From Eledone cirrhosa (taxonomy: Eukaryota), in the NCBI GenBank assembly GCA_964016885.1, contig OZ024749.1, forward strand, positions 15,624,001 to 15,688,000: a DNA stretch of 64,000 nt. Direction: 5' to 3'. Below are positions 15,166 to 62,900 of the stretch, in pieces. The position numbers were made by a program, and so were the translations under genes. The stretch's first letter is position 1, and each line of letters starts with the position of its first letter. The notes beneath the pieces were generated by a model that had not been told where the DNA came from, searched no databases, and saw only the letters and a program-made list of their open reading frames with translations.

Positions 15166-15298
15166 TTTTAATAAAACACTCTAACATCTTCAATTTCGTA
15201 TTTTCCTCTTTATGAATATACTCCGTCATCCTTATTTTAAAGAAGTAATATGATTTGAGTGCTTCAGATGAATTACATCATTATATACTGAATATTTG

Positions 15299-17505
15299 TG
15301 TGTGTCTGTGTGTGTGTCTGTATCTGTGTGTGTGTGTGTCTGTATCTGTGTGTGTGTGTGTCTGTATCTGTATGTGTGTGTCTGTATCTGTATGTGTGTG
15401 TCTGTATCTGTATGTGTGTGTCTGCATCTGTATGTGTGTATGTGTCTGTATCTGTATGTGTGTATGTGTCTGTATCTGTATGTGTGTCTGTATCTGTATG
15501 TGTGTATGTATCTGTATCTGTATGTATGTGTGTCTGTATCTGTGTGTGTATGTGTCTGTATCCGTATGTGTGTATGTATGTGTGTCTGTATCTGTGTGTG
15601 TGTATCTGTATCTATATGTATGTGTCTGTATGTGTGTCTGTATATATATGTGTGTGTATGTGTGTGTGTGTATGTGTGCATGTGTCTGTCTATTTTATAA
15701 ATACCTCTGTATGGTTGTTTGAAAATATGTGTATTAATGTTTTTTTTTTTTAAATGCATATATTTATTTACTATATATATATACATGTGTATATATATAT
15801 ATATATATATATATATAAATATGTGTGTGTGTATATTATATGTATGCATATATGTTGGTGTGTATAATATATATATAAAATGTGTGTATAATTATATATA
15901 TAATATATATACACTGTCTATATATATTTATATATATATATATATATATATATATATATATATGATAAATATATATATATATATATATATATATATATAT
16001 GATATATATATATATATATATATATATATGATATATATATATATATATATATATATATATGATATATATATATATATATATGATAAATATATATATATAT
16101 ATATATATGATAAATATATATATATATATATATATATATATGATAAATATATATATATATATATATATATATATGATAAATATATATATATATATATATA
16201 TATATATATATATATATGATAAATATATATATATATATATATATATGATAAATATATATATATATATATATATATATATATATGATAAATATATATATAT
16301 ATAAATATATATATATATATATATATATATATATATATATATATATATATATGATAAATATATATATATATAAATATATATATATATATATATATACTTA
16401 TATATGATAAATATATATATATATATATATATGATAAATATATATATATATATATATATTTATCATATATATATATATATATATATATATATATATATGA
16501 TATATATATATATATATATATATGATAAATATATATATATATATATATATATATATATATATATATGATAAATATATATATATATATATATATATATATG
16601 ATAAATATATATATATATATATATATATATATATATGATATATATATATGATAAATATATATATATATATATATATATATATATGATAAATATATATATA
16701 TATAAATATATATATATATATATACTTATATATGATAAATATATATATATATATGATAAATATATATATATATAAATATATATATATATATATACTTATA
16801 TATGATAAATATATATATATATATGATAAATATATATATATATATATATACTTATATATGATAAATATATATATATATATATATATACTTATATATGATA
16901 AATATATATATATATATATATACTTATATATGATATATATATATATATACATATATATATGATATACATACATCATATGTCTATATATATATAGATATAC
17001 ATATATATATGATATACATACATCATATGTCTATATATATATAGATATACATATATATATGATATACATACATCATATGTTTATATATATATACATATAT
17101 ATATATGATATACATACATCATGTCTATATATATATGATATACATACATCATATGTATATATATTCTAAACGATCGACTTTGATCAAATCGGACCGAGGG
17201 AACAATGTTTCCGTTGGTCTTTCCAATCGCTAATATGTATATATATATTTATATATATATACATATATATATGATATACATACATCATATGTCTATATAT
17301 ACATATATATATGATATACATACATCATGTCTATATATATATATATGATATACATACATCATATGTCTATATATATATATACATATATATATGATATACA
17401 TACATCCTGTCTATATATATATATATATACATATATATATATGATATACATACATCATATGTCTATATATATATATATATATATATATATATATATATAT
17501 ACATA
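15299..17505. repeat. Compound microsatellites: (GTATCT/GT)n, (TA)n with ATGATAAAT units, and ATGATATACATACATCATATGTCT units
   Basis: Seen directly. Confidence 0.9.
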
Positions 17506-17506
17506 T

Positions 17507-17913
17507 GTAGGAGGTGAGTTTTATTGTAGTACAATAAAGCAATGCAGATATCGGATAAGTAGCACTCTACAGTTTGTAGGACTGGAGTATAAATAATATA
17601 AGATCAAAAGATGGTTAAAAGAGTTCCAAGTATTTTATTATGCGCATTTCAAAAACAAATATCATCATGAGATGACATTTGCGTTTTCGTCAGATAAAAT
17701 AGGGATACATGATATAAAGGTTAAAAAACACTTGTGAATGGTGCAGTTTTATATCAACATATCATGTTGATTTAAAACTGGTTTTTAACCTTCATATCAT
17801 GTCTCCCTATTTTATCTGACGAAAACGCAAATGTCATCTCATGATGATATTTGTTTTTGATATGCGCATAATAAAATACGTGGAACTCTTTTAACCATCT
17901 TTTGATCTTATAT
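17507..17913. mobile_element. Palindromic non-coding element with a hammerhead motif in each arm (pLTR/retrozyme-like, family A)
   Basis: Arms ~17592-17760 and ~17764-17913. Minus strand 17631-17701: TATTTTAT-CTGACGA-stem II-GAAA-TGCGCA-TA-ATAAAATA. Plus-strand copy 17808-17878 has GAAA>GATA. Confidence 0.8.
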
Positions 17914-59082: not shown

Positions 59083-59641
59083 CAGGGGTTGGACAAAATA
59101 ATGGAAACACATAGCATCATAATTTTGAAATATCTATAAAGCTGCCAACAGCTTGTTTATTTTTATTGTTCTCGAGGTGGTCATTAAGCTCTGCAGTAAT
59201 TTTGGGAGCTGTACTTTTGTGAACCTTTCTAACAATTCGCGTATGAGTCGGACGGTCCCTATCTGAAAGTTTTGGTTTTTTTTCGGAGTTTTGTTTCGAC
59301 GAGGAGGTTTTTCCCTCTTTCTCAAAGGCTGTCATTACTTTCGAGACAGTACTTCTTGATACACCAAACATTTCGGCTGTTTTCGTTACGCTAGCGCCTG
59401 CTATATGAGCCCCAACAATTTGACCTCTTTCAAAGTACGATAGATCTGTCATTTTAATGAATTTTAATTACCTTTTTCTGATGATATCGGAAAAGAAACA
59501 GCAATTTTAACAAAACATATTATGCAACACTAATAATAAATAAAAAAACATAAAAATAAACAAGCTTTTGACGGTTTTATAGATATTTCAAAATTATGAT
59601 GCTATGATGCTAGGTGTTTCCATTATTTTGTCCAAGCCCTG
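59083..59641 (-). mobile_element. Internally deleted Tc1 transposon retaining the N-terminal HTH of the transposase (59117-59452)
   Basis: ~58-bp TIRs beginning CAGGGGTTGGACAAAATAATGGAAACAC, TA flanks, and MTDLSYFERGQIVGAH..FGVSRSTVSKV. Confidence 0.93.
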
Positions 59642-59950
59642 TATATATATATATAATGTATGTGTATATATATATATATATATATATATAGATATAATGT
59701 CTGTGTGTATGTGTGTGTATATATATATATATATATGATCATTGAAAATATCTTAATTATATATATATATGTATATATATATATATATATATACATATAT
59801 ATATATGTATATATATATATGTATATATATATATGTATATATATATATATATATGTATATATATATATATATGTATATATATATTTATATATATATATAT
59901 ATTTATATATATATATGTATATATATATTTATATATATATATGTATATAT

Positions 59951-62900
59951 GGAAAGTTATATTTAAATTGTTGGGTTAACAACGAGTAAATATTTATAAC
60001 TGATATAAAAGCACTCAACAAGTATTTGGAGTATATTTATGATATTAAATAAATGGAAACTATATTTATAAAACCATATTTATTTCGTTATATATATTTC
60101 AGGGATATCATATTAACAATATGTTATGCCATCTTCAGACAAAATACAATATAAACAGTCTTATAAATAAATAGATACGACATACCTTTCAATCACCTTG
60201 CATTTGTGAGGTTGATTTGGCAGTAAAAAATTGTGGACAGTTGTAAAAAGAAAGAGATAAAGAGAGAAAGAAAGAGAAACGAAGAAAAAGAAGAAATGTA
60301 TGTGACTAAATAGAGGGATATAGAAAGATAGATAAAGAGAAGACCTTCATGTAAAGAAACAGAGAGAAATATATATAGAGAGAGGAAAAAAAAAAGAAAG
60401 AGATAGATAGAGATAGATAGAGAAATTAGGAAGTTGAGTATCGGTTGATACATTTATTTATTTATTTATTTATTTATTTAGCTCTAGTATTAATGTAAAG
60501 AGAAATGTATGTAGTTAAGAGAGAAAATAGCCGTTATATAGAGAGAAAAAAGAGAAAATGAAAAAGAGAAAATGAAACATAACCAGACATAAACGATGCA
60601 GAATTTAAAACCGCTATGTTTTATCCGTAGAAAATATTAGTTCGTATAAAACAGGCATTATAGTGAAAGTACCAGTATTCATGAATGAGACATGTATCTA
60701 TAATGTGTGAAAAGTAATGATCTTATGTCTAGTTTTTAAAAATTCATATGTTTATATCATAATTATAAACAAACTCCCAATTCACACGAAAACATTCTCA
60801 TTGTGCTATAAAAATTCAAGTATACATATATGTGTGTATATATACACATATAAATATAGTCTATATTAATTTTAATTTTAACAATACTATTCTTGTCTTT
60901 ATTCTACATGATTGTCGATCAAGCAGAAATAGAGAACAGATTTCAATATATTAATAAAAATAAAAATAAAAATATCAGAGACAAGAAAATAAATAAATAA
61001 ACAGAAAACTAAAACATTTAATATTAAAAATAAAAAATATTACAAAATATTAAAAAATATTAAAAAATAATACAAATAAAACACAGAGATCAGCCTTTCA
61101 AAGTTAATTGACAATATATTGCCAAGATCATCATAAGCATCAGAGTCGAAACAGATAAAACAAAAATTGTTTACCAAATCCTGTCTAGCAGAAATCATTC
61201 CAAAAGTTTAGGATACCCATTTGGTCTACATATGTTCTTATATATAATATAGAAGTTTATCTAGTTTAAAATTTAATTCGATATATTTGGAGCATCAGCT
61301 TTTAGGGTAGTTTAATTATTCATGAAGAATGTTTTAATAAAAAGAATGTTTTAATAAAAAGAAGAAATCGAAAGATTTATCGGCTAGTTTCATAAATAAT
61401 TACAAATCAAATCAAAACAAACATAACTACATTTTAAATTTAAATTTATATTTAAACGTTGAGTTCAATCTATGTCTGCAGCAACTGAATAAATTTGTCC
61501 GTAGATTAAGGGAATTTTTAGATTTTAGTATAAAGAATATCTCCTCCGCACAGAGGTCACATGTCTCAGAGGATGAATTAAAAGGAATCCCCCTTGAAAC
61601 TATATTCCAAGTCGTCGAATATCTAACGTTATCATGCCTAAGTTGCCAGAGTACGCCTGATAGTGCTGTTGAAGATTTTTTGGATGGATCTGTGAAAGAA
61701 TTCTTGTGGTTGTTATAGCGAAGTTTAAATTCCGTCGATGTAGAACCAACGTAGTTAAAAGAATTAATGTCCGTTTTAACATTACAGTTGTATATTATAT
61801 TTTTAACTAAGCAGTTGTTATTTAACGGACATTTAGATCTATCTCTACAGTTACATTTGTTAACTTGGATATTATTTATGGTATTATCGCTAGGTTTTAA
61901 GTTCCTGTTATTTATTCTATTAATATTTTGCGCTAAATTTTTGGTGGATGAGTAGGTTAGTTTTATAGTATGTCTATTGAAAATTGAGTGATACCTATGT
62001 GTTCTAGGGAAGCGATTATCGAGAGCTTTAAAAAATAGTTTAGCAATGTGGGTTTTAATGTTTAGTGAGAAAGGGGGGGGGGGGCAAACCATATTATATT
62101 CCTAGTTCTATTTCTTTTATGGCTTTTGGAATTATTGTAATGCTTTCTATTATAGTTGTTAAGGTTGTGGCCATAATTAAAATAGTTGTTATTTTGTTTA
62201 ATTTGTTTATCATTATCTATGTACATAATTTTATCACTATATCCTGCTCTAGCTAACGCTTCATTGTAATAATGGGCTTTTTCGTCGAAAATCTTTTTAT
62301 TAGATGAGATTCTAGAGATACGTGATTGAACAGAGTTTACTATAGTATTTTTAACAGATTTGGGGTGGTTAGAGTTAAAGCTGACATAGTTTAAGTTTTC
62401 ATTCAACTTGTGAAATGGATAGTGAAGACATGTGTTGAGATTTAATGTTATATCTAGGAAGTTGACTATTCTATGGTTATTCTCAATTTCTATTTTTAGA
62501 TTAAAGTGATTAAAAAATTGTGTAATTTGTTTCCTATGCAGCGAATTGATTAAAAATAAGCCCACAAGGTCAGTTACCTGAGCTGAGTCGGATGATCCCA
62601 TAGTAATGTCAAAATTGTTATCTCTATCTGCTCGGGTCCATAGTTGGTCATTAAATTCTATCAATGTTTTCCTAGCCGATAATATAATGTGCATTTCATT
62701 GCAAGTTAGGTCTGTATGTTTGAATGCGTAATTTAGTGCCTTATTTAGTAGATTAGGGGTAATGGAAGAATAATAGTTAGCAATATCAAGTTGAATAAAC
62801 TTATTATTATTGTTATATTTAATTTGCTTAAACCACTCAACAACCTCACCAGTTCCCTTCCACAAGCTCAGGTTAGGTAAACAACTCAAGTTTTTAATTT

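Follow-up and report, generated by a model that had tools for sequence, protein, structure and literature searches.

Hydra-clade Penelope-like elements carry two copies of a bulged hairpin in the 5′ leader, beside the ends of inserted copies

Penelope-like elements (PLEs) are the closest relatives of telomerase reverse transcriptase (RT). We analyzed a 64,000-nucleotide (nt) stretch of the Eledone cirrhosa genome (NCBI GenBank assembly GCA_964016885.1, contig OZ024749.1, positions 15,624,001 to 15,688,000 of the forward strand; hereafter the window), in which a nine-letter word, TTGAGTRCT, recurs close to the ends of short modules that abut microsatellites. This word is not a linear 9-mer but forms the 3′ strand of a hairpin with a bulge, and the hairpin occurs twice in the 5′ leader of Hydra-clade PLEs, where the hammerhead is followed by site A, hairpin A, a spacer of about 33–59 nt, site B, hairpin B and the AUG. 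Genomic copies stop at a TA 0–8 nt before hairpin B, or between −14 and +1 of stem A. Because inserted copies end a few nt before either hairpin, the hairpins are likely to direct the copying enzyme to its starting point: judging from sequence, each probably binds the element's own protein and sets the start of reverse transcription at a UA-containing stretch a few nt to its 5′ side.

The nine-letter word around TA runs

A sequence-only reading of the window had reported ten exact TTGAGTRCT sites, and all ten are present, at 15255, 19670, 27023, 27563, 49056, 54099 and 58692 on the plus strand and at 48533, 56411 and 60010 on the minus strand; shuffled sequence held 0.71 on average, and none of 100 shuffles reached ten. 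The one-mismatch set is weak alone (30 against 20.5 expected, a count that 3 of 100 shuffles attain), and three of the four near-matches listed (17561, 32539 and 58968) do have one mismatch, but 53299 has two. Some sites are not independent, since they belong to the same family: 19670 and 48533 (with 27023 related), 56411 and 58692, 17561 and 32539, and 53299 and 58968. The word had been placed 20–65 nt from the 3′ end of modules inserted in TA; the 14 listed sites lie 20–67 nt ahead of the first microsatellite run, which is a TA/AT run at nine of them but a TG, AG, CA or CT run at the other five.

Outside the window, we sampled 98 stretches of 10 kb at round coordinates on large contigs. A (TA)5+ run lies 40–65 nt downstream of 19 of the 29 exact matches there and 40–65 nt upstream of two, against a random-position baseline of 45/2767 for the downstream interval, and four control 9-mers had such a run near 0/12, 0/16, 0/9 and 0/5 of their matches. 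The Fisher p of this enrichment, 6e-26, ignores the relatedness of copies, and the enrichment persists when related copies are collapsed, the 94 GAGYRC matches near TA forming 32 clusters by downstream tail. Nor are the tails those of a single family: among 66 pairwise alignments of 12 window tails, three reach z ≥ 3, and only 19670 and 27023 are clearly homologous (z 8.8). Genome-wide, the plus-strand pattern has 27,987 matches, and one family dominates the listing. An Rfam scan gave no match at the gathering score among the best 150 of 460 rows, all of them microsatellite-driven, and simple repeats dominated a de novo count of 8-mers beside TA runs. We dropped the idea that 27563 is a chance match; its relatives share the tail, and one of them keeps the 5′ arm.

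A bulged hairpin in two copies

In the window, ACTC and a short, family-specific inverted repeat stand ahead of the word. The layout is that of a hairpin consisting of RCUC, an inner stem-loop, a 2-nt bulge (mostly UU, UA or UC) and GAGY-RCU, in which the arm letters vary between families as ACUC/GAGU, GCUC/GAGC or UCUC/GAGA. By eye, it is clear in 8 of 12 multi-copy tail clusters, present as a variant in two and absent in two.

Copies linked to an open reading frame (ORF) continue past the point at which terminal copies join (TA)n; a few bases farther on, before the AUG, lies a second hairpin. This twin layout is found in four families of the E. cirrhosa genome. Beyond this genome, we gathered protein relatives, 40 of which (out of 120 listed) were aligned, and retrieved 78 metagenome loci; among 42 metagenome families, 27 have at least two hairpin anchors, ten have one and five have none. 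Depending on the family, the spacer between the hairpins measures 33 to about 65 nt (median 41 nt in the metagenome set), and in most families the 3′ end of hairpin B lies 15–46 nt before the ORF start. Some leaders (L237, L241) seem to hold a further pair of hairpins upstream, or a third copy.

The word had been taken for a signal of RT template recognition or of 3′-end formation. It does belong to a conserved cis element, but that element is no mark of an RNA 3′ end, since the hairpin lies in the 5′ leader and the sequence continues into the ORF; we ruled out 3′-end formation because ORF-linked copies extend beyond the junction. Template recognition appears the best reading, with the motif corrected to a structured, letter-variable hairpin that occurs twice.

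The family of 19670 and 48533, known first as short modules only, provided a test of prediction: we searched for its second stem arm with a pattern that fixed the 5′ arm and left the 3-nt offset, the 3′ strand and the ORF start free. The continuation with the second arm has 401 genome matches, against 0 for the control. Of 12 loci inspected, 11 hold a full hairpin B and eight have a Hydra-type ORF start at most 900 nt farther on; the offset to hairpin B is uniformly 3 nt. Some of the 401 copies lie in tandem arrays with a period of about 3.54 kb.

Covariation and occurrence in other phyla

A strict descriptor of the hairpin matched 39 of 56 leaders, none of 56 ORF-interior controls and eight leaders in antisense. 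For covariation, 57 loci were reduced to the 42 families, and arms were picked blind to the inner pairing; of 27 rows, four for hairpin A and two for hairpin B were dropped because they had no arm, and one B arm was picked wrongly. Pairing was imposed on the first outer pair, which is hence excluded as evidence for the stem. In hairpin A, the first inner pair is Watson-Crick in all 23 families (12 C-G, 11 U-A; shuffle mean 17.3, p 0.0005), the second is paired in 20 (shuffle mean 11.0) and the third in 16, again above shuffles. The three inner pairs of hairpin B are paired in 25, 15 and 18 of 25 families, the shuffle mean for the third being 10.4. Folding, in which 2 of the 27 leaders yielded one anchor only, predicts an outer-stem probability above 0.5 for 19 of 25 A hairpins and 22 of 25 B hairpins. 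Within one family, hairpins A and B change together.

That the element might extend to other phyla was borne out: it is present in Hydra-clade PLEs of other organisms, namely in the metagenome families and in published consensuses. Among the supplementary consensuses of PMC8557442, inspected by eye, those of Hydra-2_Amil from a coral and Hydra-2_Ajap from a sea cucumber have the GCUC/GAGC form at their ends, and that of Hydra-1_Ajap starts with two hairpins. Eight variants of the 9-mer have six matches in this 584-kb supplement, three at Hydra ends and three internal elsewhere, a count in which line breaks may hide matches and other clades are unfolded.

Two families of the window (22044–22068/22143–22162 and 57742–57840) have UAA/UAU in place of the 3′ flank RCU in both hairpins. 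Two sister metagenome families carry UCUC/GAGA in both.

Inserted copies end beside the hairpins

Five terminal copies of the family whose ORF begins at 22213 end 7 nt ahead of hairpin B, terminal copies in the family of the 59951–63155 element end 3–7 nt ahead of it, and a third family of this genome ends 3 nt ahead. Nine metagenome contigs hold a second copy, four of which (L192, L201, L217 and L244; L201 by eye) end 0–4 nt before hairpin B; of the other five, one ends in mid-spacer, one is an internal tandem and three reach the contig end.

Inverted partners mark the second site. Within 3 kb, 40 of 99 B-ended copies have one, in a set that includes pattern-selected loci, and 34 of these 40 partners end at −14 to +1 of stem A (31 on TA), five at −15 to −21 and none at B, while one continues into the ORF. 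A census of 73 divergent pairs, taken from the unselected stretches and the window, gave in a first pass 21 A+B, four A+A, no B+B and 48 pairs with an unclassified end. Inspection of the four A+A pairs left one true case, moved one to A+B and showed two to be artefacts, and 22 of 23 classifiable inverted pairs are A+B (p 3e-6 against independent ends). The secondary structure is thus conserved and keeps a fixed distance from the apparent copying start, as expected of an RT template-recognition element.

The elements that carry the hairpin

The earlier proposal that the word links separate families to one enzyme class held up, the class being Hydra-clade PLEs. As set out in PMC8557442 (Craig et al., 2021), this clade is marked by an RWK-like motif, DKT, CxCX5C, a C-terminal GIY-YIG, a hammerhead in the pseudo-long terminal repeat (pseudo-LTR) and (TA)n targets. 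Four families of the E. cirrhosa genome have RWR, an N-terminal motif of the RWK type, and have DKT instead of DKG, both window ORFs have the CxCX5C linker, and copies in the window and genome are inserted into (TA)n, as in Hydra-clade PLEs. A pattern scan alone places hammerhead cores upstream of hairpin A at 21948, 60097, 17647 and 32625. The Pfam GIY-YIG profile matched the 22213 ORF at E 0.0036, below its curated cut-off, and did not match the other window ORF; the Pfam search of the RT ORFs otherwise gave little. Protein identity among the four families is 42–53%; a quick tree of own and metagenome families, drawn without published references or an outgroup, was used for family distance only. 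A search of sequencing runs listed no RNA run as a holder.

The modules that were traced, 19670/48533 and 60010, are not "otherwise unrelated", as they had been described, but come from autonomous Hydra families, of which they are cut-short or inverted ends. Tandem non-coding units with complete hammerheads, which would characterize non-LTR retrozymes, were not what we found: the traced modules come from ORF-bearing families, and the window has a two-unit tandem at 57234–58270 only. In the most abundant family (L297–L308), the hammerhead, about 110–170 nt upstream of the match, has stems I–III that look intact and a non-canonical 5′ core, in which a CUUGAGAA-like run replaces CUGANGA; most short copies keep only its 3′ half.

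Features of the window

A decayed hairpin A lies at 15220–15263 on the plus strand, with intact relatives at L090 and L106, and it is parted from its hammerhead core (14922–14954) because a short repeat was later inserted between them. This repeat is abundant and is seen inside PLE pseudo-LTRs at 14985–15190 and 21480–21640. The inverted insertion at 17510–17913 has its left end at site B and its right end at site A, and contains hairpin A (17561–17588) and a hammerhead core (17647–17693) on the minus strand. At 19560–19723 (plus), an inverted insertion of the most abundant family carries hairpin A at 19652–19678 and a tail that ends at site B, and its inverted 3′ half of a hammerhead stops at site A.

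A leader on the plus strand comprises the hammerhead core of an ORF-linked pseudo-LTR (21948–21979, by pattern scan), hairpin A in its GCUC/GAGC variant (22044–22068), overlooked by the 9-mer, site B (22127–22135), where five terminal copies of the family meet (TA)n, and hairpin B (22143–22162), which has one 5′-arm change relative to most family copies. The Hydra-type PLE ORF that follows (22213–24632) encodes the RT and then GIY-YIG in a shifted frame (24255–24632). Farther along the plus strand are a B-ended module whose hairpin A has a shortened inner stem (27012–27031) and, at 27563–27571, the 3′ strand alone, its 5′ arm gone here and kept in a relative (L319). Two inverted insertions, 32482–32910 and 48491–48700, have the B end on the left, with hairpin A on the minus strand (32539–32566 and 48533–48559, respectively), and the A end on the right. 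At 49042–49064 (plus) lies a hairpin A whose loop is UUCG and whose tail is short.

The hairpin A at 53299–53320 (minus) has two mismatches to the 9-mer and belongs to the family of 58968, represented by the hairpin A of a B-ended module at 58968–58989 (minus). In the inverted insertion at 53449–54166, the A end is on the left, and hairpin A (54079–54107, plus) precedes the B end on the right. A B-ended copy of a further Hydra family (L271–L294), with a long AT-rich inner stem in its hairpin A, was overlooked by the 9-mer at 54784–54937 (minus). The short hairpin at 56411–56429 (minus) has an inverted twin at 58683–58700 (plus), and no copies of this family were found beyond the two in the window; the two modules (56345–58756) are inverted and divergent, 2.3 kb from each other, and enclose a two-unit 535-bp hammerhead tandem. 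Also overlooked by the 9-mer is the tandem pseudo-LTR pair at 57277–57840 (minus), whose inner unit has hairpin A at 57812–57840 and hairpin B at 57742–57760, and whose terminal unit has hairpin A at 57277–57305 and ends at TA. The coding PLE at 59951–63155 has hairpin A in its terminal pseudo-LTR at 60010–60032 (minus), a hammerhead core at 60097–60138, the element end at 59952 and a frameshifted, 5′-truncated Hydra-type ORF at 61427–63135 (minus).

The window also contains a 30-bp tandem array of 98 copies (34304–37277), a perfect 44-bp array of ten copies (40113–40555) and two minus-strand fragments that resemble a Tc1-type transposase N-terminus (59084–59640) and an RTE-type RT C-terminus (8489–9400).

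Discussion

In the mechanism that we propose, the endonuclease would nick a (TA)n target, the freed 3′ end would pair with UA(U) next to a hairpin, and copying would head toward the RNA 5′ end, with the hairpin holding the RT so that the nicked TA end meets UA(U) immediately 5′ of the stem. From B, the enzyme would copy hairpin A and the spacer, which form the tail; from A, it would copy neither and leave a tailless end. Terminal copies would have a single hairpin 20–67 nt from their end because hairpin B is copied from neither start, and internal starts at each hairpin would explain why the PLE tail is one-sided. Less certainly, a single event could use both starts, one on each strand of the target, possibly through a protein dimer, after which the two cDNAs would join into an inverted, one-tailed A+B insertion. 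Such programmed double priming, in which a dimer on hairpins A and B of one RNA would prime both (TA)n strands at adjacent UA sites, is a tentative suggestion from the sequences, to which we give a little less than an even chance. A complex prediction with two copies of residues 1–490 of a Hydra protein scored 0.01, in a run in which the alignment was not used, and is no evidence either way.

Several observations weigh against this account. The covariation shuffles take no account of family relatedness, and 15 of 42 families have fewer than two anchors, some leaders being misplaced or cut by contig ends. TA is common in AT-rich leaders, and only 19 of 25 B stems have one within 8 nt; the end of L202 falls in mid-spacer and that of L300 inside hairpin B. 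No inverted partner was detectable within 3 kb for 59 of the 99 B-ended copies, 48 of the 73 inverted pairs have an unclassified end, one true A+A insertion exists (L061), and the far end of the window's coding PLE is a TAT in an inverted piece of 3′ untranslated region (UTR), not site A. By eye, the ends of copepod Hydra-1_Crog and of Hydra-1_Amil match the hairpin only partly, and the Hydra-1_Obim ends inspected in the PMC8557442 supplement have none. In the Poseidon clade, no such hairpin is visible by eye in the RNA stretch of PMC11167929 Fig. S1, and the element studied there primes without target homology.

The hairpins could act as DNA instead, the GIY-YIG endonuclease recognizing cDNA or an extruded duplex and trimming or resolving an intermediate so as to fix the two ends. 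The tail has been attributed to endonuclease-mediated resolution in PMC8557442, the D. virilis endonuclease requires the tail for recognition, as cited in PMC11167929, and covariation alone is blind to the difference between RNA and single-stranded DNA. We nevertheless consider this decidedly improbable: terminal copies lack hairpin B, yet hairpin B predicts their end, which fits a template signal lying beyond the copied region; the in vitro RT starts of a Poseidon element coincide with its tail ends (PMC11167929); and pairs of the sense-strand G-U type outnumber those of the C-A type 7 to 2, a weak indication. It is also improbable that the hairpins are protein sites for ribonucleoprotein assembly or for translational control near the AUG, with starts falling next to them only through open, TA-rich stretches. 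The 15–46 nt between hairpin B and the ORF start would suit such a role, openness over the 8 nt preceding the stems is predicted to exceed background (0.71 and 0.66, background 0.51), and one window copy was primed at an unrelated TAT, but other TA-rich stretches of the spacer and UTR seldom serve: a single 16-nt window takes in 34 of 40 partner ends, and stem B keeps its offset of 0–8 nt though spacer length varies between 33 and about 65 nt.

A further alternative touches the twin-priming step only, namely that A and B ends arise from two separate insertions or from a later local fold-back, which we regard as unlikely though worth taking seriously. The A+A insertion and the many B-ended copies without a partner agree with it, whereas independent ends predict many B+B and A+A pairs and we saw 0 and 1 against 22 A+B, and no A+B pair of the first-pass listing has a long TA run between its arms. 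As for chance, or one family counted repeatedly, several window sites do belong to the same family and one family does dominate genome-wide, but the 32 tail clusters, the 42–53% protein identity and the occurrence in other phyla contradict it; the collapsed counts refute this explanation, and we give it next to no weight.

The proposed placement of RT starts by the two hairpins has partial precedents. Hydra-clade PLEs have inverted 5′ copies and a tail that is often at one end only, and the origin of PLE tandem and inverted structures is termed undefined (PMC8557442). The leader hairpin goes undescribed there, the main text having no matches for "hairpin" or "stem-loop", although it is visible, unremarked, in the supplementary consensuses. 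The Poseidon-clade element Poseidon_Ac initiates reverse transcription in vitro internally at two sites that bound the tail, with both strands extended, RNA 3′ of the starts needed and a dimer predicted (PMC11167929; Frangieh et al., 2024). The Hydra families would resemble it in having internal starts downstream of the hammerhead at two tail-bounding sites. In Poseidon_Ac, however, the starts lie inside the ORF, at an AC-rich stem-loop, and need no target homology, and the passages of PMC11167929 covered name no repeated positioning element. In the Hydra families, by contrast, each proposed start has its own conserved hairpin on the 3′ side and a UA match to the target.

Structured RNAs that are read by their own RT and set the start of copying include the 3′ stem-loops of the long interspersed nuclear elements (LINEs) UnaL2, SART1 and R2 and the hepadnavirus epsilon. 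The signals of stringent LINEs are single and lie upstream of the start at the RNA 3′ end, and epsilon templates protein priming from its bulge; the Hydra hairpin differs from both in being duplicated, in the 5′ leader and 3′ of each proposed start. In L1 twin priming, the same RNA is primed again from a second nick, which yields an inverted arm, but the second site is opportunistic, whereas the apparent second site of the Hydra families is fixed beside hairpin A in most cases seen. As in the non-LTR retrozymes described in bioRxiv 10.64898/2026.07.22.740005, short hammerhead sequences here are related to PLE pseudo-LTRs; unlike the tandem non-autonomous units covered in that account, the traced modules are dispersed cut ends of coding families. 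Full-text literature searches, whose coverage excluded subscription journals and Repbase notes, found no description of the leader hairpin element.

These observations bear on how PLEs choose a template and a start site. A short element, conserved across phyla, yields an exact prediction for each insertion end, one within reach of the in vitro assay published for another clade. For annotation, tens of thousands of short TA-embedded modules in the genome are likely ends of Hydra PLEs. If double priming is true, both insertion junctions would be RT start points; this would account for the tail, for its restriction to one end and for inverted pseudo-LTRs, and some 100 nt of leader would form a portable unit that sends a telomerase-sister RT to any cargo RNA.

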